From: an uncultured Lentisphaerales bacterium | GTDB lineage: Bacteria > Verrucomicrobiota > Lentisphaeria > JABSQK01 > UBA12247 | Assembly (NCBI GenBank): GCA_943788985.1 | Contig: CALSSJ010000012.1 | Span: 192,001-256,000 of the forward strand | Reading direction: 5' to 3' | DNA: 64,000 bases | Shown here: positions 1 through 11,205 of the stretch, piece by piece | Layout: each line of letters starts with the position of its first letter | Position numbering within the stretch: position 1 is the first letter of the stretch | The notes under the pieces: model-generated | Told to the model about the DNA's origin: nothing | Databases searched by the model: none | What the model saw: only the letters and a program-made list of their open reading frames with translations | Translations under genes and position numbers: made by a program

Positions 1-1
1 C

Positions 2-241
2 GCTCGGGCGCTGGTCACGGATCCGCAGATCATCGTCGCCGACGAGCCGACCGGCGACCTGGATCGCGAGTCGGCCGCCGCCATCATGCAGTTGCTGCAG
101 CGACTCAATCGCGAGCTGGGGCGGACGCTGATCATGGTGACGCATGACGAGAAGGCGACCCGCTTCGCCACCCGCACCCTGCATCTGGACAAGGGGCTGC
201 TGGTGGAGTCAGCCGCCGGAGCCATGGCAGACGAGGACTAA
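2..241 (+). CDS. ABC transporter ATP-binding protein, LolD/MacB-type, 5'-truncated by window edge
   Basis: Hand translation of frame 2 gives [21 protein letters not shown]...LIMVTHD (Walker B, D-loop, H-loop); TAA at 239-241. Confidence 0.9.
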
Positions 242-242
242 G

Positions 243-1391
243 ATGTTAAAGCCCAGATACCTGCCATTTGTCGTCAAACACATAACCCGACACCGCTGGC
301 GCAGTGCCCTGACCGTGCTCGGAGTGGGCACCGCGATGTTTCTATTCTGCGGCGTCCGGGCAATGCACGAAGGCGTGCAAGAGGCGACCGTTTCCAGCGC
401 CGGCGAAACCACCCTCGTGGTTTACCGCGAGAACCGCTTCTGCCCCTTCACCAGTAAGCTCCCGCAGGACTACGGCCGCCAAATCGCAAAGCTGCCAGGC
501 GTCGATTCCGTGGTCCCGATGAAGATCATGGTCGGCAACTGCCGGGCATCGCTGGACGTCATCACCTTTCGCGGGGTACCGCCGGCTGACTTCAACAGTG
601 TTGCCGCTAACTTTCAGGTCGTCGATGGCTCGGTGGCCGAGTGGCGAAAGCGAAGCGACGCCGCCTTGATCGGTCTTCGCGCTGCGACTCGACGCGGATT
701 GCGCGTGGGCGATCGACTCGAGATCGCGGGGATCACCATCACCATCGCCGGCATCGTCGAATCCGACCGGCCACAGGATCAGGACTCGGCCTTTACCCAT
801 CTGGATTTTCTGCAGCGGAGTTCCGGCGCCGGGCTTGGCGAGGTCACTCAGTTCAATGTTAGTGTCAGCGACCCGCAGCAATTGGACGAGGTCGCCCGAC
901 GCATCGATGCGTTCTTCGCAACTGCCCAGGATCCGACGGCCACATGGAGTGAAAAAGCGTTCACGGCGCGCGCTGTGACCGACATTATTGAGCTGGTGAG
1001 TTTTGCTGCCTGGCTCGGCTGGGGTGCACTTGTTGCGGTCTTCGCACTGGCCGCCAACGCCATCATCCTGAGCGTCCAAGAACGCGTGCGCGATCACGCC
1101 GTGCTACAGACCCTCGGTTTCGGAACCGGGCTTATCGCGCGGCTGATTGTCGTCGAGAGCGCGTTGCTGAGCCTGCTGGGTGGGGCGATCGGAATCGCGG
1201 CCGCCGCGGCCGTGTTGCATTGGGGGCGTTTTTCCCTGTCTGTCGAAGGCCAGAGCGTGCAGGCCAACACGAATCCAGAGACCATTGTCCTTGGCCTTGT
1301 CTACTGCCTGCTGCTGGGAATCGGCGCCGGGCTCTTTCCCGCCTGGCAGGCAAGCCGTCGCGACATCGTTACCTGTTTTCGGGCGGTATAA
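243..1391 (+). CDS. ABC transporter permease, MacB/FtsX family
   Basis: N-terminal TM (RSALTVLGVG), periplasmic domain, then QERVRDHAVLQTLGF and a C-terminal GLFPAWQASR FtsX-like segment; ATG 1 nt after the upstream stop. Confidence 0.9.
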   Translation: MLKPRYLPFVVKHITRHRWRSALTVLGVGTAMFLFCGVRAMHEGVQEATVSSAGETTLVVYRENRFCPFTSKLPQDYGRQIAKLPGVDSVVPMKIMVGNCRASLDVITFRGVPPADFNSVAANFQVVDGSVAEWRKRSDAALIGLRAATRRGLRVGDRLEIAGITITIAGIVESDRPQDQDSAFTHLDFLQRSSGAGLGEVTQFNVSVSDPQQLDEVARRIDAFFATAQDPTATWSEKAFTARAVTDIIELVSFAAWLGWGALVAVFALAANAIILSVQERVRDHAVLQTLGFGTGLIARLIVVESALLSLLGGAIGIAAAAAVLHWGRFSLSVEGQSVQANTNPETIVLGLVYCLLLGIGAGLFPAWQASRRDIVTCFRAV

Positions 1392-1392
1392 G

Positions 1393-2553
1393 GTGCGCAT
1401 TCTCCCCTACGACTATGCCGTTCGCAACCTTGGCCGGGCACCCTTGCGCCTTGTGGCCACGGTCGGCGGCTGCACCATGGTGGTGCTGATCATGATGGCT
1501 GCCACCGCCTTTGTGCAGGGCATGCGCCGATCGCTGACCCCCAACTTGCAGAGCCGCAATGTGCTCTTGCTCAGCGCCGGTAGCGAAGAAAGCCTTGAGC
1601 GCAGCCAGATTAGCGCGGCCATACCGGGCCACGTGCGGGCCTCAGTCACCGGCATCAAGCAGCGGCTTGGCGAGCCCTTCATCTCACCTGAGATCCATCT
1701 CGCGCTGATTGTTTCTCGACCGCAGCAAAGCGAAGAGCTACGGGCGATCGTTCGTGGTGTCGACACCGGCGCCTTTCTCGTCCATTCCCGCGTGCAGTTG
1801 ACCGCTGGCCGCCCGCCGCAGCACGGGCACAACGAACTGCTCGTTGGCGCCCTCGCCGCGGAAAAGCTCAATATCCCGGAAGCCGACCTTGCCATCGGCA
1901 AGTCGCTCATCGTCGAGGGCAACCCTTGGACCATCGTGGGCCGATTTGCCGCGCCAGGGACGGTGATGGATGCGGAGATTTGGACAAGCTACACCGATCT
2001 TCAGGTCGCCACGCAGCGCAACAGCCTGTCCTGTATCGTTATGACACTGGATGAGGCAGAGCTGGCCGACCTTGCCGCCTGGACCGCGGTGCGATTGGAT
2101 TTGGAGCTTGTTGCCATGAGTGAAGGCGAGTATTACGCGTCCCTGCGGCAATTCTACGGACCGGTGCGCGCCATGATCTGGGTGACAGCTTTGCTGATGG
2201 CCCTGGCCGGTATTCTTGGCGGGCTCAACACGCTATTTGCAGCCTTTGCGGCGCGAACACGCGAGCTCGGCATGCTGCAAGCGCTCGGCTACTCGCGCGG
2301 TGCGATTCTGCTGAGCCTGCTGCAGGAGTCTATGCTGGCTGGAGCCGCAGGCGCCTTGATCGGAGCGCTCATTTCCTACTTTTTATTGCATGGCAACGCT
2401 GTACGTTTTTCTATGGGCGTGTTTGAGTTGCAGGTCGACGCGGTCACAGTCTTTATCGGCATGCTCAGCGGTCTCGCGCTTGGCTTTATCGGCGCCCTGC
2501 CGCCAGCCTTTCGCTGTCTGCGGGAACCCATTCCCAGCGCCTTGCGCACCTGA
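1393..2553 (+). CDS. Second ABC transporter permease, MacB/FtsX family
   Basis: GTG start directly after the previous stop; YAVRNL..., ARTRELGMLQALGYSR and GALPPA motifs. Confidence 0.88.
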   Translation: MRILPYDYAVRNLGRAPLRLVATVGGCTMVVLIMMAATAFVQGMRRSLTPNLQSRNVLLLSAGSEESLERSQISAAIPGHVRASVTGIKQRLGEPFISPEIHLALIVSRPQQSEELRAIVRGVDTGAFLVHSRVQLTAGRPPQHGHNELLVGALAAEKLNIPEADLAIGKSLIVEGNPWTIVGRFAAPGTVMDAEIWTSYTDLQVATQRNSLSCIVMTLDEAELADLAAWTAVRLDLELVAMSEGEYYASLRQFYGPVRAMIWVTALLMALAGILGGLNTLFAAFAARTRELGMLQALGYSRGAILLSLLQESMLAGAAGALIGALISYFLLHGNAVRFSMGVFELQVDAVTVFIGMLSGLALGFIGALPPAFRCLREPIPSALRT

Positions 2554-2589
2554 TTTTTCTTCACCCCAACCCCACCCACAGAGATTCCC

Positions 2590-3099
2590 ATGATGAAAAT
2601 TCGCCACCTCCTCGCCCTCGCAGTCCTCGCCGCCATTGTCACTGGCTGCGGCAAGAAAGAGTCAGCCGCGACACCTATGCCTGCGGTCAGCCTGATCCCT
2701 GAGGCGCTCATTGTCAGCAGCATCGCAGGAACCGCAGTCACGCCAACGGCCGCCAAAATCACGGCCAAAGCCGGGGACGCCATTGTGCTCACCGGGCACA
2801 TCGCTGGCCGCGCCCAGCCCTTTGTTGCCGGTCGCGCCATCTTCACCTTGGTCGATACGAAATTGCCACAATGTACGGATGGGTGCAGTGCCCCATGGGA
2901 CCTCTGCTGCGAAGAAGCTGCGGATATCGCAGCCGCTGCCGCCACCGTCCAGGTCGTCGATGCCGAAGGCAACCCGCTAAAGCAGTCCTTAGAAGGTCCA
3001 CTCAAGCCTGGCCAGACCATCGCCGTGTCCGGCAAAGTAAAGCAAAACGACGGCATAATCTTCGTCATCAGCGCCGACCAGATCGCCGTGTTGAAGTAG
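2590..3099 (+). CDS. Cys-rich lipoprotein of unknown function
   Basis: Lipobox IVTGC after a hydrophobic signal; motif CTDGCSAPWDLCC. Confidence 0.75.
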   Translation: MMKIRHLLALAVLAAIVTGCGKKESAATPMPAVSLIPEALIVSSIAGTAVTPTAAKITAKAGDAIVLTGHIAGRAQPFVAGRAIFTLVDTKLPQCTDGCSAPWDLCCEEAADIAAAAATVQVVDAEGNPLKQSLEGPLKPGQTIAVSGKVKQNDGIIFVISADQIAVLK

Positions 3100-3363
3100 T
3101 TTTCAGTAATCAGTGGACCGGGAATGAAGCTACCCGGAAGGGGGGATGTCGTATAGCCGGGGTTGTCGCTCCGTGTCAGCCATAGATAGGGCATGGCTTG
3201 GCAGCTGCCTTTTTAGTTTTTTTCCTTTTTTGCAGAATAACGGGCGAAAACTAGACAGATAGAAAACCTGCTTCAGTGTCTGTTTTTTATGAATACGGAG
3301 CTGGCACCAACTGCTAGTTCCAATGATCCACAGAGTTTGCAATAGAATCCCCCGTTGGGCACG

Positions 3364-5166
3364 ATGACAGATCCTACAGACGCACCGGCTGACTACCGAT
3401 TTCAGGTCAATCTGAAGGACCTAATCGGGATCTTATCACACCATCTCTACTCTACCCACGACGTGTTTCTGCGTGAACTCACGCAGAACTGCTGCGACGC
3501 CATCAGCGCCCGACGGCGCGTCGACGCAGAGTTCGAGCCTCTGATTGAATTCGAACTGCTCGAGGGAGGCGACACGCCGACGTTGCTGGTGGCGGACAAT
3601 GGCTGCGGCCTAACCGCAGAGGAGATTCACGAGTTTCTGGCTACGATCGGAACCAGCAGCAAGCGGGAAGAAGCAGATTTCATCACGACACGGGCAGACT
3701 TTATTGGCCAGTTTGGTATCGGTCTTCTGTCCACCTTCATGGTGTGTGACGAGATCGTGCTGCTGACGCGCTCGCACAAGAGCGAGCAAGCTTATGAGTG
3801 GCGTGGGCACAGTGATGGCACCTATACACTCACGGAAAGCGACGCCGATCTCACGGTCGGCACGCGCGTGTTTCTCCGTGCGTCTGCGGACTCCGCAGAT
3901 TTGTTCACTGGCGATCAGATCCTAGAACGTTTACGCCACTATTGCAACTACCTGCCAACCCCCATCTTCCTCACCTGGGCTGACACACGGAAGCAAGTGA
4001 ATGAGGTGGCGCCCTGGTCGCGTACATGCCCTGCTGCAGATAGCGAAGCGGCGGCTGTCAAGCTGGCACAGCGTTGCTTTGGCGAGGGGCAGATTCTCGA
4101 TGTGTTTGCCATTGAAGGGGACTATGTCAGCGGCCACGCCTTCCTGATGCCCTTTCATATGATCGGCGGTGCCCGGCGTAACGCGGTATACATCCGCAAT
4201 ATGTTCATTGGCGCGAATCTAAATGACCTGATGCCTGATTGGGCCTGCCTGTTTGCGATCGTGCTTAACAGCGATCACCTGACGCCCTCAGCATCCCGTG
4301 AGGCGCTCTACGGTGACGAGCACCTCGCCGCTGCCCGCGAGGAGATCGAGCGCGCACTCAACGTCTACCTGCGCCGGCTCGCCAGCGATCGCCCCGCGGT
4401 CTTGACCGAGTTGATTCTGCAATACGAGCCACTGCTAAAGAATCTGGCCGCTCAAAATGATCACTTCCTGCAGTGTATCTTTGGCGTTCTTACTTTCGAG
4501 ACCAGTCGCGGTCGCCTGCCATTGAGCGAGGTGCTGGCCGATCCCGGCGGGGCTTCCTTCGTCACGGACGTGGATGAGTTTCATAAGCTGGTGCCAATCG
4601 CCTCGGCCTCTGGCCACGTCGTGATCAACGCTGGCTACGCTTTCGAGCCCGTCCTGATGAGCAAGCTTCATCTCCTGCATGGCCCCAAACTGCGCCCGAT
4701 GGACAGCGCAGCGCTGCTCGCCTGCCTCAAGGAAGTGAACGATCCAGAAGCCGCCGAGTGGGCGGAAACGCACGACCTACTCTCCCGCGTGCTGCGTATC
4801 TACGGCGTCCGCCCGCGTCTGGTGCGCTTTCAGCCAGACACCATCCCGATGCTCTATTTCCAGGGCGAGGCGCAACGGGAGGCACGGCGCATGCAGCACT
4901 TTGAGGAACAGGCGGATGACCTTTTCCAAAGCGTCCTGTCCGAATTGTCGCTTCCGCCAGATCCTAACGAACTGCTGGTGAACGTCGAGAATCCTCTAAT
5001 TCAGAACCTGCAAGCCTGTGGTGACACGGGCTTTGCCGAATCGGTGGCCAAGCTGCTCTATGTCCAATCCCTACTGCTGGGGCGATATCCTCTAGGCCAT
5101 CAGGAGTTGCTGCTTCTAAACGAGAACGTCGGTGCGTTGCTGCAGCGAACCTTGCTGGGAGACTGA
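3364..5166 (+). CDS. HtpG/Hsp90-family GHKL ATPase (atypical paralog)
   Basis: FQVNL...LYS...FLRELTQNCCDA, DNGCGLT, IGQFGIGLLSTF, GTRVFL; middle-domain ASRE arginine motif. Confidence 0.9.
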   Translation: MTDPTDAPADYRFQVNLKDLIGILSHHLYSTHDVFLRELTQNCCDAISARRRVDAEFEPLIEFELLEGGDTPTLLVADNGCGLTAEEIHEFLATIGTSSKREEADFITTRADFIGQFGIGLLSTFMVCDEIVLLTRSHKSEQAYEWRGHSDGTYTLTESDADLTVGTRVFLRASADSADLFTGDQILERLRHYCNYLPTPIFLTWADTRKQVNEVAPWSRTCPAADSEAAAVKLAQRCFGEGQILDVFAIEGDYVSGHAFLMPFHMIGGARRNAVYIRNMFIGANLNDLMPDWACLFAIVLNSDHLTPSASREALYGDEHLAAAREEIERALNVYLRRLASDRPAVLTELILQYEPLLKNLAAQNDHFLQCIFGVLTFETSRGRLPLSEVLADPGGASFVTDVDEFHKLVPIASASGHVVINAGYAFEPVLMSKLHLLHGPKLRPMDSAALLACLKEVNDPEAAEWAETHDLLSRVLRIYGVRPRLVRFQPDTIPMLYFQGEAQREARRMQHFEEQADDLFQSVLSELSLPPDPNELLVNVENPLIQNLQACGDTGFAESVAKLLYVQSLLLGRYPLGHQELLLLNENVGALLQRTLLGD

Positions 5167-5170
5167 ACCA

Positions 5171-8026
5171 ATGAGAAGCTCTGTGGATTTCGAACTGGAG
5201 GCCGAGAGCCTGCCCGACGGGATTGAGAAGGGCCGCCTGCTGGAGCGCGCCGCGGAGCTCTCCGAGCTGGATGGCGACACCTCCCGGGCCTTCGCCCTGC
5301 GCTACGCTATGCTAAGGGCGCAATATGGCTGCGCCGCAGACGAAAAGGTAATTGGTATCTTTTCTTGGATGGCGCGCACGATCGACCGCGAGCCCGAAGT
5401 TCGCGCCCAGTGGACAGACTCATTCATGTGGCTCTACAAGTGGGTTTTGAATTCCTGTCAGCGGTTGAGTGCTATCCCGCGAGGAAAAATAGAGGCACTG
5501 CATGGCGACTATGAGCGGCGCGTGAGGGCGCTCGGCTACAGCCTGTATAGCGTCTACCAGCAGCGTATGGACCTTGCCTGCTACTTCGGCGAGCTGGACC
5601 AAGCAGAGGACTACTGGCGCCAGATGCGAACGCACAGCCGCGATGATCACTGCGACTGTGAGGCATGCGTGCCGAGCAATGTTTCCACCCTGCTCAGGAA
5701 GTTGGGACGTCACGACGAGGCATGGCACCAGTACGACCGCGTGATCTGCGGGGAGCTATCGTGCGACCAAGTCCCGAGCGTGTCCTGGCCGAGGCTGGCG
5801 GTGCTGGCCTTAAACGCTGGAGACGAATCGCACGCTGCACTTTACGCGAATGCTTGGTCTGAAACTCTCACCAGGGTCGAGATTACTTACACGCTTGAGG
5901 ATTTGATTCACTATATGTGGCGCCGTGGGCTCTGGGGCGATTTCCGTCACTACCTGCGCGTGCACGCCAATCCTACGTTCTTTTCGGTCATGAACCAAGT
6001 ACCGATCTGGCGGGAGTTGGATGCGGCGCTGGTTCGCTTTGCGCCGCACTTCGCCGAGACTGAATTTCTAGGCCCGATGCGCATCACGGACTCCTTCACT
6101 GTGAGTACCTGGGCAGAGTTGGCTGCGAAGGCACACGCGACTGTCGCCGAGGAAGACACGCGCTTTGACCGACGCAATCGTACGCCACACTTTTGCGAGC
6201 AGCATCAAGCCAGGCTCGAGCGGGCAGAATCACTGCAGAGCGAGCCAGTCCATTCGGAGTTGACCACGGCTGCCAGCAGCCGCGACAGCGTGGCGTCAGC
6301 GGAGGAAGATGTCCGCTCAGAAAGTTTTGCGGAGTTCGCACAACGGTTTCGTGATGAGATCGAGTCATGCTACGGGTGGGAAGACGAGCGCCAGGCCCTG
6401 GCTGGTCTTGATGCTTTGGCATTGCTCGAGATTGTCCGGGACGGAGAAGCGGATGCCCGCAGCTACGCGGCGCTGCGGGAGCTTGCCGAGCACTACGCCG
6501 ACTCCGTTGAGTGCGTCGCCGCGACCGCCCATCAGATCTACAATGACTGGCGTCCGTTCATGGCGCGCGCGGTTCTGCATTATCGGGAGGACGTAAAGGG
6601 GCTGGATATGCTGCTGCCGGAAGTCCTGCGCTGGCCTTCGGATCTCACAGACTACCTGTTGCGACGCCTAGTGGAGCTAACTGCGGGAGCGGCCCGGAGC
6701 CGCTACGTATTGCGCACAGCGGAGATTGCCGCCCAACGTTACGAGGATGAGCAGGCCCTGGCATTGGTCGAGCAAGTTGAGAAGGCCCCGCCCACTGCGC
6801 TAGAAGACCAGTTCGCCCTCGGGCAACTGCTCAATCATCTGGGCGCACCTGAGCGCGCGCTTGACCTGTGGCCCAGCATTCTTGAGCAAACCAGCGGGGA
6901 GATGTACCGCGAGGCGCTATTGGGCTCTGCCTATACCTATCACCAGTTGCAGGACTACGCCGCTGCGGAGGACACCTACCGGACATGCCTTGGCATGTTT
7001 GAAGAGCCCCCGGTGAATCTGCTGCTGGCGCTGACTGCTAGCATTCGGCAACAGGACCGCCCAGGCGACGCTTTGCCCTTCGCCAAGCGAGCGCTCGAGG
7101 CGTCCGATTGGGAAACAGGGGCGTTCCTCGAAATTGGTCATTGCCAGTTCGATCTTGCGGAGTTCGCAGAAGCTGCCAGAAACTATGCGGAGGTATACCA
7201 ATTCGACGACTCCTTGGAGATTGCCGAACGCTATGCATTGGCATTGCGCTATGCGGAAGACTACGCTGAGGCGGCGACCGTCTTTCGTACCTGTCTCACG
7301 ATGGCAGAGGAGGAGGAAGAACCGATGGAGGCGTTTCAGTTCGGCCTGGCATTCTGCATGATCGCTGCCAGACCATCGCCCACTGGTCGCAGGATGATGC
7401 GCGAGCTTATCTTGGGGGAGGGAGAGTTTGCTGCCGATGCGTTCTCAGCGCTGAAAGAGGATGTCTGTGAGCGCGATGGTGTGGCCAGTTGGTCCCGTGT
7501 GGTCGCTCTTTTGCTGAAACGGATGCCGAACAGCACCAAGGTCATCACCGAGCGTGCATGGTGTCTGCACACAGCCGGCAAAATCCGCGATGCCCATACG
7601 CTCCTCGAGGCCCATCGCGATGATGACCAGTGCTTGGCTCAGCTGGCGATGCTGCAGACCGATCGGGACGCCGCGTTGGACTTGCTTCCGCTAGACCGCG
7701 TGGCCGGATCCCCGTGGTTGCTGTTCGTGCGCTGGGATCAGCTCGCTGCGCTCGAGCGCTGGGCTGAAGCCGAGCAGACGCTTCACGAAGTCGCAGAATT
7801 GCTTGGCGAGGTGCCATCTGTCGCCATCCGTCGGGCGGACCAACACGTAGCCCAGGAGGAGTACGCCAAAGCCGATGCAATTCTAGACGAGCAGTTCGAG
7901 AGGCTACAAGACCTGCGCATCCTCGAGCGACGCCTTGTTACGCTCGAGGCCCTCGGCGATACCGAGCAACTTGCCGCGGTCCGCAACATCGTGGATGCGG
8001 CGAATCTGGAAGAACCGGCGGAATAG
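5171..8026 (+). CDS. Large TPR/alpha-solenoid protein with N-terminal Cys cluster
   Basis: About 950 aa, acidic and Ala/Leu-rich, with helical repeats (YAAAEDTYRTCL, FAEAARNYAEVY, YAEAATVFRTCL); DDHCDCEAC and SCDQVP motifs; starts 4 nt after the Hsp90 stop. Confidence 0.8.
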   Translation: MRSSVDFELEAESLPDGIEKGRLLERAAELSELDGDTSRAFALRYAMLRAQYGCAADEKVIGIFSWMARTIDREPEVRAQWTDSFMWLYKWVLNSCQRLSAIPRGKIEALHGDYERRVRALGYSLYSVYQQRMDLACYFGELDQAEDYWRQMRTHSRDDHCDCEACVPSNVSTLLRKLGRHDEAWHQYDRVICGELSCDQVPSVSWPRLAVLALNAGDESHAALYANAWSETLTRVEITYTLEDLIHYMWRRGLWGDFRHYLRVHANPTFFSVMNQVPIWRELDAALVRFAPHFAETEFLGPMRITDSFTVSTWAELAAKAHATVAEEDTRFDRRNRTPHFCEQHQARLERAESLQSEPVHSELTTAASSRDSVASAEEDVRSESFAEFAQRFRDEIESCYGWEDERQALAGLDALALLEIVRDGEADARSYAALRELAEHYADSVECVAATAHQIYNDWRPFMARAVLHYREDVKGLDMLLPEVLRWPSDLTDYLLRRLVELTAGAARSRYVLRTAEIAAQRYEDEQALALVEQVEKAPPTALEDQFALGQLLNHLGAPERALDLWPSILEQTSGEMYREALLGSAYTYHQLQDYAAAEDTYRTCLGMFEEPPVNLLLALTASIRQQDRPGDALPFAKRALEASDWETGAFLEIGHCQFDLAEFAEAARNYAEVYQFDDSLEIAERYALALRYAEDYAEAATVFRTCLTMAEEEEEPMEAFQFGLAFCMIAARPSPTGRRMMRELILGEGEFAADAFSALKEDVCERDGVASWSRVVALLLKRMPNSTKVITERAWCLHTAGKIRDAHTLLEAHRDDDQCLAQLAMLQTDRDAALDLLPLDRVAGSPWLLFVRWDQLAALERWAEAEQTLHEVAELLGEVPSVAIRRADQHVAQEEYAKADAILDEQFERLQDLRILERRLVTLEALGDTEQLAAVRNIVDAANLEEPAE

Positions 8027-8101
8027 CGGTGAACAGAATTACCGCTGCTATCGGTAGCGTGTTGCGGCGCTTTACCCGCACCGCCTGGGGCAGAGGGGGA
8101 A

Positions 8102-8194
8102 AACCACGGAGGCACTAAGGCACGGAGAGGAAGGATTCTGGTCTGTTATTTAATGCCTGCAACTCTACCTCCGTGTCTCCGGACCTCCGTGGTT
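8102..8194. repeat. Intergenic palindromic (REP-like) element
   Basis: Perfect 11-bp arms aaccacggagg (8102-8112) / cctccgtggtt (8184-8194), with inner arms cacggag / ctccgtg. Confidence 0.7.
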
Positions 8195-8409
8195 AATTTC
8201 GGTCAAGCGCCCGCTACTGATCTTTCGGGTATAGTCATCGAGCCAGGAAAAACACGCCACAGGTACAGTAGGGAAAGACCTTGCTGGTTTGCTAAAAAGG
8301 AGTGCGCCGGGCGTCAGCTGGCGTCCTTGCTTGCATGAATAGAGAATTTGCCGCGCTTATCGGTATGTTGCCGCGCGGTAGCCACAACCCAGGTCGATCG
8401 GAGATATAG

Positions 8410-9468
8410 ATGAAACAGAGAATGCAATGCGTTGCCAAAATCGTTCTGGGCTTGTGCCTCTGCGGTGGAACTGCCTTTCAAGCGAGTGCCGAACCTACCG
8501 ACGCAGCGAAGGCAGCGAGGAAAGCAAAGCGCGCGCAGGCGGCGAAGATGCCGGCGAAGAAGAAGCCGAGGTATCTGGAGACGGGGGGAGAACGCAAGCT
8601 GAATGTTGTCTATAAGACAGTCGGCAAGCGCGAGCTGCAACTGGACCTCTATTATCCCACGGCAAAGCAGGGCGAGACCACCCCCGTGATCTTTTACACG
8701 CACGGTGGCGGCTGGGCAGCTGGCTCGCGCTTCGGCGCAGCGAATGCTTCCTTTGGCGTGATCCACAAGAAATTAATCAGCGAAGGGTTTGCCGTCGTAT
8801 CGATCGGGTACCGGCTGGCGAGAAAGGAGAGCGGTGTGGCGATTCGCGACTGCGTAATCGACGCCAAGGATGCCATGCGCTACATCGCCAAGAACAGCGA
8901 TTCGCTGGGGCTCGACCCCAATCGTTTCTTCATGTTTGGCGACTCCGCAGGTGGGCAGATGGCCCAGATGCTGCTGCTGGCATCGCCTAAGAGCTTGCCG
9001 GGTGCGCCGGCGCTTGCCGATGCGTCCTACAAGACAGTAGCTGCTGTCTCTTGGTATGGCCCCTGCGACTTCGAGAAGACCAGCCTTTTCAACCACGACG
9101 ACCGGGAAAATTTCCGGGATCGCTTCGGGCCACGTATCCTCAACAGCGACCCAAAAGTTGGCACGGAGAAGAAGCTGGCGCTCTATCGCGAGATGAGCCC
9201 GATCAATTATCTGAGGACAGACAGCCCACCCTTGTTGATGATTCAAGGCGATAAGGACACCACCATCCCGGTGAAGCACGCCTATTACATGCAGGAGAAG
9301 GCCAAGGAGTTGAAGGCCCCCGTCGAGGTCATGATCATCAAGAATGCAGGGCACAACTGGCGCAAGGTTGAGGCCGATATCGCGCCGACCCGGAACGAGA
9401 TTATCGAGGCAACGGTGCAGTTCTACCTGCATCACGCTGGAAAGATTAGCACCGCACCCGCAGAATAA
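8410..9468 (+). CDS. Secreted alpha/beta hydrolase (HSL/BD-FAE-like esterase)
   Basis: Signal peptide; HGGGW oxyanion motif, GDSAGG nucleophile, [13 protein letters not shown]. Confidence 0.88.
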
Positions 9469-9539
9469 TCGACACCCCATCCGGAGAGAGATCGTGCCTC
9501 TACTTCAAGGGCGATGGCACACACCGGAGCAAGATCGGC

Positions 9540-10473
9540 ATCACCCCGCAGCGCTCAAAGGGCGTGGCGGGCAGCTGTGACCCCGCCGGCAAGGTACTGA
9601 GCGTGGTCACGTGCCATGTGCAGGATGCTGCCAATGGCTTCGTGAACTCCATGTGAGAGCACCAAGGCAAGCCCTGTCGTGTGGGGACTTGATCAATCTC
9701 TACAACGATGGCTCACCGGGCCCCACAAAGCCACCATTATGCCCGAGGCGGTCAACACCGCGCTGCATCAGTGGCTACAGGACGAGGCCAACGTGCGTAT
9801 ACACCGCACCACAAACAAGCGCCCAGTCGACATGTTTGAGGAGGAAAAGCCAGCGCTACAACCACTTCCGGGCATCTCCCAGCCGTGCTGTGCGGTCGAT
9901 CGTAGCGTCAGCAACAGTTGCTGTCGAATCACCGTCGGCGACAACTACTACAGCATCCCAGCTGCCTACGCTTCGTAGCGGCTGATCTTGCAGCGCGGAG
10001 TCGATCGCATTTGTGTAAGAACCACCGAGGACGTCTTCGTCGCCGAACATATCCGCGGCTTCGCTCGCAAGCGCCCAGTCATCGATCCGCAGCACGAGAA
10101 ACAGATCGAAGACCTCACCAGCCGCGCCCGCCATAACCGGCAGGTTACCCTCTTCCTGCAACTCGGTAGCAGCGCATTCTCCTACCTGGACGGGCGCGAG
10201 GAGAAGCGCGTAAACTACCCGAGCCACATCCGGCGCATCAATGACGTTATTGCCACCTTTGGCTACGATCAGGTTGCTCGTGCCTTGGCTGAATACTAAC
10301 GGTAAAACGGTGCCTGTGGCGCTGACCACATCCACAACCTACATGGTTTGCGTCTGCGCAAAAAACAGCAAGAAGCAGGTGGGCCCTTACATCTCACCAG
10401 AAAAGCCGACCTGCTCCATATCGAGTTTCCCCCGGCCAAACTCAAGCTCTACGATCAGGACACACAGCTATGA
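9540..10473 (+). pseudogene. istA: IstA transposase remnant (C-terminal half)
   Basis: NTALHQWLQDEANVRIHRTTNKRPVDMFEEEKPALQPLP and ITVGDNYYSIP; stops at 9976-9978 and 10297-10299; 5' part missing. Confidence 0.8.
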
Positions 10474-11205
10474 CCGAACGCCTCCGGGCCACGATTAAGG
10501 AACTCAACCCCAGCTAGATCGCTGATAACCTCGACATCGAAACTGCCGAAGCCATCCGGCTCTCACGTCCGGCCCATGACCTCATCGAGCAGCTTTTCGA
10601 AGGCCCACTAGCTTATCGTCACAACCGCAGCGTCGAGCGCCGCATGCGTCAGGCCAAACTATCGCGGCGCAGGAGCTTGACTGACTTCGACTTCTACTGG
10701 CCATCGGTCATCAATGCCGACCAAGTTCGCGCGTTGTTCACCTTAGGCTTCCTGCGTGATGCAGACCAACATCGTCTTCATTGGCACCGTTGGCTTAGGG
10801 AAGACTCATCTTGCCTGCGCCCTCATCGCTAAAGCCTGCGAAAAGCGTAAGAACGCGTTGTTCAACCCATCAGTGAGCATGATCAACGAGTTCATCGACG
10901 CTCGTAAATACGGTACGTTATCCAAAGCCATCAAGCGCTCCCTACGCTGCGATCTATTGGCCATCTACAAACCTGGTTAATTACCCATGGACAAACTCAT
11001 TGCCGAGCTGGTATTTCGGGTTCTTGCAGGTCGTTACGAACGCGGCTCCACCATCATCACAATCAACCGTGTCTGCAAGGACTGGACCGTGACTTTTGCA
11101 GGTGACAGTGCAATGACGGCCGCCGTCCCAGACCGCATCGTCTATCATTGCCATACCGTTGTTATTGAGGAGTAGAGCTACAGAATGAAAGACCGCGTAA
11201 GCTAG
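10470..11205 (+). pseudogene. istB: IstB helper ATPase pseudogene
   Basis: LTDFDF, Walker A GTVGLGKTHLA, RYERGSTIIT, AVPDRIVYHC, IEE*SYRMKD; several stops and a frameshift. Confidence 0.85.

Follow-up and report, generated by a model that had tools for sequence, protein, structure and literature searches.

A divergent Hsp90 paralog and its conserved neighbour in a Lentisphaerales genome: a candidate chaperone and partner pair in bacteria

Eukaryotic tetratricopeptide repeat (TPR) co-chaperones, such as Hop/Sti1, PP5 and FKBP51/52, bind the C-terminal MEEVD of cytosolic Hsp90. A 2022 paper describes Hsp90 co-chaperones as found only in eukaryotes and bacterial Hsp90 as having none (PMC9478669). 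Bacteria also possess long-branched Hsp90 clades distinct from HtpG, described as HTPG Groups B and C by Chen et al. 2006 (PMC1525184). Press et al. 2013 recognised such clades too, and state of hsp90B and hsp90C that in their study of co-evolution these genes "are ignored throughout the analysis" (PMC3708813); the available sections of these two papers assign neither a function nor a partner to the non-HtpG lineages. Here we describe a pair of genes, an Hsp90-family gene (gene A) and the gene of an acidic TPR-like protein with a cysteine cluster (gene B), in a stretch of 64,000 nucleotides (nt) from an uncultured marine Lentisphaerales bacterium of the phylum Verrucomicrobiota (contig CALSSJ010000012.1 of assembly GCA_943788985.1, positions 192,001 to 256,000; the whole stretch is called the window hereafter). 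Considering that bacterial Hsp90 is described as lacking co-chaperones and that the non-HtpG lineages were set aside, the pair provides a candidate bacterial Hsp90 helper, and a partner gene travelling with a non-HtpG Hsp90 lineage over three phyla makes this candidate concrete and testable.

A preliminary description, made from the letters of the window, had pointed out an atypical HtpG-like gene followed by an acidic TPR protein with a cysteine stretch, and had proposed either a dedicated chaperone system or a role in anti-phage defence. The observation was confirmed overall; of the interpretation, a paralog with a conserved TPR neighbour was supported and the defence role was not. The features of the pair, in window coordinates, are the following.

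3364 to 5166, plus strand: gene A, a divergent Hsp90 paralog of family NF010683 (PRK14083), ATG at 3364, TGA at 5164-5166, 600 amino acids (aa)
5157 to 5162, plus strand: GGGAGA, Shine-Dalgarno-like and located in the last codons of gene A, 8 nt before the ATG of gene B at 5171
5171 to 8026, plus strand: gene B, acidic partner of 951 aa, with a conserved N-terminal domain, a linker and a TPR tail
5171 to 6247, plus strand: N-terminal domain of B, aa 1 to about 359, a TPR-like superhelix (AlphaFold2 model and family profile)
5651 to 5776, plus strand: cysteine cluster region of B, aa 161-202, with C163, C166, C198 and P202 invariant
6248 to 6322, plus strand: probable flexible acidic/Ser-rich linker with approximate boundaries, aa about 360-384 (low predicted local distance difference test score, pLDDT; gap-rich)
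6323 to 8023, plus strand: variable acidic TPR-like tail of B, aa about 385-951 (Pfam matches and composition)

Gene A and the conservation of the pair

Gene A matched the NCBIfam model NF010683 ("HSP90 family protein") with 521.5 bits (E 2.8e-156; cut-off 455), over residues 10-596 of its product, and scored 522.1 bits in the genome-wide search. On the HtpG model NF003555 ("Group A") it reached 181 bits, below the curated cut-off of 371. A canonical htpG is present on another contig of the same genome (G000:C10, 707 bits), and the product of gene A is 23% identical to this HtpG.

The Bergerat-fold ATP-binding motifs are all in place in A: E38 and N42 (RELTQN), D78/G80/G82 (DNGCG) and G115-G120 (GQFGIG). 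These GHKL/Hsp90 motifs, whose intactness had been read from the letters at the outset, correspond to invariant columns in an alignment of 39 sequences of A relatives and align with those of the genome's own HtpG. The middle-domain residues R312-E313 (SASRE), with R312 as the catalytic arginine, are equally invariant in the 39 sequences and aligned to NVSRE of the own HtpG. The A-family profile matched E. coli HtpG (2IOP) from position 4 to 577 of 602, over chain residues 6-610 (E 4e-54), and matched TRAP1 equally well; no solved structure closer to A than HtpG 2IOP or TRAP1 was found when this profile was compared with the PDB sequences. As judged from its sequence, gene A is a member of the Hsp90 family (GHKL chaperone ATPases) with the N-M-C three-domain architecture and a predicted C-terminal dimerisation domain, and is a catalytically intact-looking, very divergent Hsp90, not a canonical HtpG.

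We also placed A in a quick maximum-likelihood tree (LG+G4) whose 41 rows were 24 paralogs and, from the window's phylum, 17 canonical HtpGs; branch support was given by the Shimodaira-Hasegawa-like approximate likelihood ratio test (SH-aLRT), and long branches and uneven composition were flagged. Results showed that the paralog clade including A is separated from the 17 canonical HtpGs (SH-aLRT 100), which, with the canonical htpG on another contig, bears out the early view of A as an atypical paralog and not the sole htpG. The window's A pairs with that of another genome of the phylum, G289 (SH-aLRT 99). As it does not fall within the clade of actinobacterial paralogs (SH-aLRT 96), a recent transfer of A from Actinomycetota is rejected. 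Among the relatives found in a protein database search with residues 280-600 of A as query, one was labelled "Pirellulaceae" (31% identical). The product of A ends with LLGD, and 37 relatives have short tails that vary in sequence, are polar or acidic, and have no C-terminal motif in common; no MEEVD-like C-terminal anchor was found on A, as already noticed, or in the tails of these relatives.

Gene A and gene B are closely packed. Between the A stop and the B ATG (5171) there is a gap of 4 nt (acca), exactly the spacing given in the preliminary description, and the start of B at 5171 is consistent with the N-terminus of a 39%-identical homolog (P0004). The Shine-Dalgarno-like GGGAGA within the 3' end of A may act as a translational coupling site for B. 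RNA-library contigs from two marine/estuary studies cover A and B at an identity of at least 99%, one of them (5105-5636) spanning the A/B junction, and others cross the upstream spacer (X18 record 9, 2900-3364). In the contigs of two studies (X18, X20), the T-run of this spacer has one base fewer at 3217, owing either to a difference between strains or to an error in the homopolymer. In X17 and X20, position 6570 is joined back to 5368 through an identical insert of 36 foreign letters; these joins are probably chimeric assembly or related sequence of another organism.

To describe the distribution of the pair, species-representative genomes were scanned with an 11-sequence alignment of B matches, built without the window's protein and P0004. 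At least 601 stretches matched, 557 of them confirmed; the best 80 of these 557 correspond to 79 loci, all of Actinomycetota. Using tblastn with the window's gene A, we found an Hsp90 paralog directly upstream of B and on the same strand at 72 of the 79 loci. The distance from the A stop to the B match, taken at 37 actinobacterial loci, was 20 nt or less in 22, while in 5 the two genes overlap by 4 nt; larger distances, measured to the start of the B match, are upper bounds. When all open reading frames (ORFs) of four reference loci were used as tblastn queries, only A and B (plus overlapping shadow frames) recurred beyond 14 loci; the other flanking genes were shared within a genus alone, and the Nocardia loci have stable flanks around the pair. 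Two Actinocrinis metagenome-assembled genomes carry tandem full-length partner genes of about 1030-1070 aa each (L049, 5776-12043; L087, 5578-11750), with no Hsp90 paralog within 6 kb upstream, and represent orphan duplicated partner copies.

Co-occurrence was analyzed in samples holding one genome per species, with searches that score only the best candidates of an initial pass. Of 251 evenly sampled Actinomycetota genomes, 8 (9 copies) were above the NF010683 cut-off, and the B N-terminal profile found the same 8 genomes (10 copies); B adjoins A, directly downstream, for all 9 copies of A, and a single copy of B, in genome G520, stands alone. Among 301 genomes of the window's phylum, A was above the cut-off in two, the window's own (G000) and G289, and the B profile hit these same two. 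Taken together, 10 of the 552 genomes of the two phyla carry both genes (2 of these 10 were chosen as centres), none carries only one and 542 carry neither. In G289 the paralog lies on contig 61, where the surrounding 8 kb contain no B, and B is on contig 53, with no A in reach; therefore, the co-occurrence of A and B persists without adjacency. Around the G289 paralog (L023, G289:C61), the gene of a 794-aa TPR protein lacking the three-cysteine (Cys3) domain of B (8273-10657, minus strand) ends convergently, 16 nt past the paralog stop, and an upstream gene (2485-4809, minus strand) encodes a protein of 774 aa in which aa 620-751 match the N- and C-terminal domains of GreA/GreB.

The pair is frequent in Streptomyces, where the B domain was found in 72 of 101 species genomes, 12 of which have two copies. 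The one Streptomyces genome checked for canonical HtpG (G302) has none; one Nocardia and one Micromonospora genome have both canonical HtpG and the paralog. In Streptomyces globosus, a gap of 1 nt separates the gene of an HSP90 family protein from the downstream gene of a 1033-aa hypothetical protein. The paralogs of five Streptomyces genomes (G357, G327, G520, G494, G342) fall into two score classes, about 858-870 vs 812-822 bits, and the partner-domain scores (about 537 vs 481-498 bits) track these classes, G357 having one pair of each; the Streptomyces operon seems to have been duplicated and to have diverged as a unit.

A tblastn search of B against annotated records of a plasmid collection extended the pair to Paenibacillus cellulosilyticus and Listeria monocytogenes. 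The Paenibacillus Hsp90 paralog scores 615 bits on the paralog hidden Markov model (HMM), and its gene has a 4-nt overlap with that of a ~340-aa protein matching the HMM of the B N-terminal domain at E 1e-63. In Listeria, a RefSeq "HSP90 family protein" gene beside fri is followed by the genes of two ~320-aa hypothetical proteins, which match the same HMM at E 1.8e-53 and 4.4e-55. As these B-domain genes of Bacillota stand alone after A, the conserved partner is the N-terminal domain and the TPR tail is optional, which agrees with the early view of the Cys-bearing N-terminal part as a domain followed by variable repeats. The Listeria module (L104, NZ_LR134399.1, 2154-5939) is divergent from fri and lies upstream of SMI1/KNR4 and low-molecular-weight protein tyrosine phosphatase (LMW-PTP) genes; the record is filed as a 394-kb "plasmid" but has chromosomal-looking genes.

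In the closest relative of the window's pair, whose A and B are both reported on a 34,247-nt contig (apparently one and the same), A is 68% identical and B 39%, with 44.7% for the N-terminal domain and 35.8% for the tail. Such a difference is what one would expect of a conserved engine and an adaptor that evolves faster. Because of these conservation counts, the adjacency of A and B is not due to chance. We give practically no credence to an incidental vicinity of two functionally unrelated genes: the existence of unlinked copies is all that speaks for it, against the linkage at 72 of 79 loci, the same 10 genomes of 552 carrying both and the spread over three phyla. The neighbourhood of A and B is conserved well beyond the window; A and B are a two-gene unit under joint selection, and we are highly confident that they form a functional pair.

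The partner family and what gene B may do

Gene B encodes a protein as acidic as first described (pI 4.76, net charge -68), the acidity being pronounced from aa 366 to 951 (pI 4.51, net charge -54). Pfam recognised only TPR_8 and TPR_12, weakly, at aa 550-612. The AlphaFold2 model of the N-terminal domain (pLDDT 85.6, predicted TM-score 0.85) is an all-helical superhelix with a single beta-hairpin at aa 299-313, and is followed by a linker with pLDDT below 50 at aa 361-370, gap-rich and unalignable among homologs. The five cysteines C161, C163, C166, C193 and C198 are located within DDHCDCEAC...ELSCDQVP, the stretch that had attracted attention originally, and belong to loops in the most confident part of the model (pLDDT 93-98). 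As they sit at the starts of successive modelled helices, the cysteines are probably clustered in space.

With B alone as query, a word-indexed search of 5.8 billion proteins returned 13 proteins, all of 865-965 aa. The first ~340 residues are conserved and common to all 13; no conserved stretch came out of the alignment of all 13. A profile of the N-terminal domain built from 40 sequences gave a far larger family, with 2738 clusters at E <=1e-3 and 1676 at <=1e-30 among 1.84 billion representatives (50% identity clusters). The domain was N-terminal in all of the 150 B-family matches listed, and the full-length members are mostly of about 850-1080 aa. Neither Pfam nor NCBIfam has a family for it, the Pfam search giving weak TPR matches in 7 of the 40 members, and no sequence relative was found in the PDB (best E 0.07). 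By profile comparison, the N-terminal domain of B defines a large family without a name in Pfam or NCBIfam. A protein language-model look-up with the domain pointed to hypothetical proteins of ~360-380 aa in Bacteroidota and Bacillota (score 0.97), which we take as a lead only, and a metagenome scan for a partner of the window's type gave 606 pattern matches with none confirmed.

We also compared the modelled domain with known folds. Foldseek gave generic TPR/PPR matches alone (best E 6e-4, TM about 0.4). An exhaustive structure alignment placed MalT domain III (1hz4) first, with a Z-score of 17.7 over 319 residues and a root-mean-square deviation of 5.8, followed by other ligand-binding solenoids, among them Rap and NprR with Z-scores of 13-14.5. 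Sequence identity in these structural matches is 6-11%.

Conservation in the domain is centred on the cysteines. The residues invariant over the three phyla (9 sequences) are E25, W87, K90, G140, D162, C163, C166, C198, P202 and L214, to which A222, A319, D333, R335 and N336 are added. C163, C166, C198 and P202 are found in 40 of 40 family members and in 9 of 9 sequences across the three phyla and, together with K90, in all 150 aligned B-family members, which are the best-scoring clusters and lean towards Actinomycetota. The window's protein scores 329 bits on the B-family HMM and shows all the signatures of the domain (W..K, DCxxC, C...P and DxRN), while C161 and C193 are specific to its lineage. 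The residue after P202 is H in 67 members, Q in 54 and another residue or a gap in 29 (n=150).

The Cys3 site is most likely, from this conservation, a metal holder or a thiol switch. The pair could also be a stress-gated chaperone comparable to Hsp33, in which B would regulate A by sensing thiols or metal. The Cys3 site would then be a redox or zinc switch, and B would keep the paralog inactive (or active) until altered by oxidative or metal stress. Such an explanation would account for the DCxxC...C arrangement, whose three cysteines are invariant while a fourth ligand is not. It is also in line with the search for heat-shock operators upstream of the operon, where CIRCE was found at 0 of 75 loci and HAIR at 1 of 75, allowing up to 2 mismatches per half-site. 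On the other hand, the three cysteines may simply be structural, and a regulator of this kind would overlap with the adaptor explanation given below rather than exclude it. As an account of B in its own right, we regard the regulator as improbable, with a small chance of being correct.

The explanation that we favour, to which we give about an even chance, is a dedicated two-protein chaperone module of the Hsp90 type, with A as the ATPase and B as its obligate adaptor or co-chaperone partner. According to this model, A would be a divergent Hsp90 ATPase working beside the housekeeping HtpG, and the conserved N-terminal superhelix of B (about 340-360 aa) would dock on A or be acted on by it. The invariant cysteines may hold a metal ion or serve as a thiol switch, and the fast-evolving acidic TPR tail (about 570 aa) would recruit clients or a scaffold, so that B would deliver substrates to A or hold them for it. 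N-terminal docking combined with a client-binding tail is what would make B an adaptor or co-chaperone for A.

The same linkage and co-occurrence data would also be expected if B were the dedicated client of A, that is, a large solenoid, difficult to fold and requiring its own Hsp90 for maturation, metal loading or assembly and performing the activity of the module by itself. The existence of B copies without a nearby A, of tandem B duplicates, and of two B-domain genes per A in Listeria, as if one chaperone had several clients, fits with such a role. On the contrary, neither an enzymatic nor an effector domain could be recognised in B, the part conserved best is a protein- or peptide-binding type of repeat scaffold, and a discrete stand-alone domain of ~340 aa over three phyla fits a docking module better. 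We therefore consider a client unlikely, although with an appreciable chance.

Several observations weigh against the adaptor model or limit what can be drawn from the data. The conservation of the pair would be the same for an adaptor and for an obligate client. At seven of the 79 loci (L043, L047, L048, L049, L052, L061 and L087) B has no adjacent A, which, with the solitary copy in G520, indicates that linkage to A is not required for B to occur. A weak search for A-B fusion proteins gave none at E 1e-10 among 5352 candidates of 1051-3000 aa. High Z-scores are common in fold matches to generic repeats, and those of the B domain are no proof of kinship. A fourth metal ligand is not evident in the family (n=150). 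Finally, the RNA-library contigs can stem from DNA carry-over, and the bridging contig is no proof of a single transcript.

A broader proposal goes beyond the adaptor model and is tentative, somewhat more doubtful than not: the Cys3 domain of B might be the founding member of a family of bacterial Hsp90 co-chaperones, ancient and common to Actinomycetota, Bacillota and the window's phylum, which would dock on non-HtpG Hsp90 and gate its ATPase through a metal or thiol site, lineage-specific TPR tails selecting the clients.

Surroundings of the pair

The remaining features flank the pair on both sides.

3195 to 3363, no strand assigned: lower-GC intergenic spacer, presumed promoter or 5' region of A (from GC content and sequence)
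8040 to 8056, called on the minus strand: short hairpin, weak and terminator-like, 14 nt past the B stop
8102 to 8194, no strand assigned: imperfect inverted repeat, two arms of 26 nt separated by 41 nt

The upstream spacer is indeed richer in A and T, as first described, with a GC content of 0.51 in 3001-3500 vs about 0.60 around. A consensus scan found no sigma-70 promoter-like sites in 3000-8500, a result that is uninformative for the window's phylum. The palindrome of the preliminary description is the imperfect inverted repeat, whose arms (8102-8127 and 8169-8194) are 81% complementary, and the hairpin lies between it and gene B.

The immediate neighbours of the pair are an exporter of the MacB/FtsX type upstream and an esterase of the BD-FAE type downstream. 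The upstream part (window 1-3099) has two MacB_PCD/FtsX permease genes of an ABC exporter (144-1391 and 1180-2553), just before the pair. The IS21 remnant mentioned originally was recovered at 10644-11175, 2.6 kb downstream of the pair, as an IstB gene (AAA+ helper) broken over three frames, with Pfam IstB_IS21 E-values of 0.0038, 7.5e-12 and 7.6e-14 for the three fragments; IstA was not recognised in 9344-10640. The LRR/Roco stub of the same description found no counterpart, as no ORF between 9344 and 12133 had a Pfam match to such a domain. A synteny search for an insertion of the pair at this site, made with the downstream esterase in two genomes of the same order, gave no match.

A distant relative of A was observed on the Pseudanabaena sp. 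plasmid NZ_AP017561.1 (L109, 4932-7565). This 877-aa "ATP-binding protein" gives a full-length match of 340 bits to the HMM of the Hsp90 paralogs and bears an extra C-terminal extension of ~240 aa. Its neighbours are TIR-domain, DEAD/DEAH helicase, TPR and vWA proteins, a defence-like context, with no B-type partner within 5 kb.

The surroundings are relevant to the anti-phage or conflict system suggested at first, in which the pair would be carried on an accessory islet, with a GHKL ATPase as effector or motor and the TPR protein as sensor. A sporadic presence in the window's phylum (2 of 301 genomes) and a presence short of universal in Streptomyces (72 of 101) would suit such a system, as would the IS21 remnant downstream, the fast-evolving tail of B, a weak match of A to the GHKL part of Tiamat TmtA (E 1e-11) and the TIR, helicase and vWA genes adjoining the Pseudanabaena ATPase. 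However, PADLOC (PADLOC-DB 2.0, 2023) matched 0 of 40 members of the B domain and gave no match for full-length B, while its matches to A (TmtA and a type II restriction endonuclease) are confined to aa 16-130, the generic ATP-binding fold. In addition, A and B are devoid of effector domains such as nuclease, TIR or protease, the neighbours here are an exporter and an esterase, the window flanks are without defence genes, and the flanks within Nocardia are stable. The Pseudanabaena protein has no B partner and therefore represents an arrangement different from the A-B pair. Altogether, we consider a defence function very improbable.

Comparison with known systems

Canonical HtpG (NF003555; 2IOP) has the same N-M-C architecture as A and the same ATP-binding and catalytic residues, and A differs from it by its 23% identity to the genome's own HtpG, its score below the cut-off and its separate clade. 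The non-A lineages comprise the Groups B and C of Chen et al. and the hsp90B and hsp90C of Press et al., together with NF010683, of which A exceeds the cut-off. Work on the geldanamycin resistance of a Streptomyces HtpG may concern this type of paralog and is not known to describe a partner.

With the eukaryotic TPR co-chaperones, gene B would share a TPR-type helical repeat dedicated to Hsp90 and possibly bridging to clients. The eukaryotic pairs use the MEEVD anchor, whereas A ends with LLGD and the tails of its relatives share no motif. In the comparison of the B profile with the PDB (best E 0.07), no sequence relation appeared to any solved protein, and the eukaryotic TPR co-chaperones are not known to have the Cys3 signature. 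The likeness of the B domain to MalT domain III and to Rap and NprR (RRNPP), ligand- or peptide-binding superhelices, is in the fold only, and, unlike these sensors, the B domain has no associated NTPase or DNA-binding domain.

In the literature found, no published description of the A-B pair appeared, and subscription-only papers and supplements may hold more. With this pair, a bacterial Hsp90 may for the first time have a helper protein of its own, and, if the Cys3 domain is indeed a co-chaperone family, the textbook statement that Hsp90 co-chaperones belong to eukaryotes only would be overturned. The partner family is large (2738 clusters at 50% identity), and its ~340-aa core is small enough for biochemistry and structure determination.

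The same module can be recognised in organisms already under study. In Listeria, it corresponds to lmo0942-lmo0941-lmo0940, with partners that lack the TPR tail; lmo0942 was mentioned in passing as a neighbour of fri (PMC3534079) and lmo0941 was listed as "function unknown" (PMC6901971), and the gene order leads us to take lmo0941 and lmo0940 for the two genes of the partner domain. The Streptomyces pairs annotated in RefSeq as "HSP90 family protein" and "hypothetical protein" are the same module as well. As Listeria monocytogenes and 72 of 101 Streptomyces species carry the pair in their genomes, its genetics is within reach.

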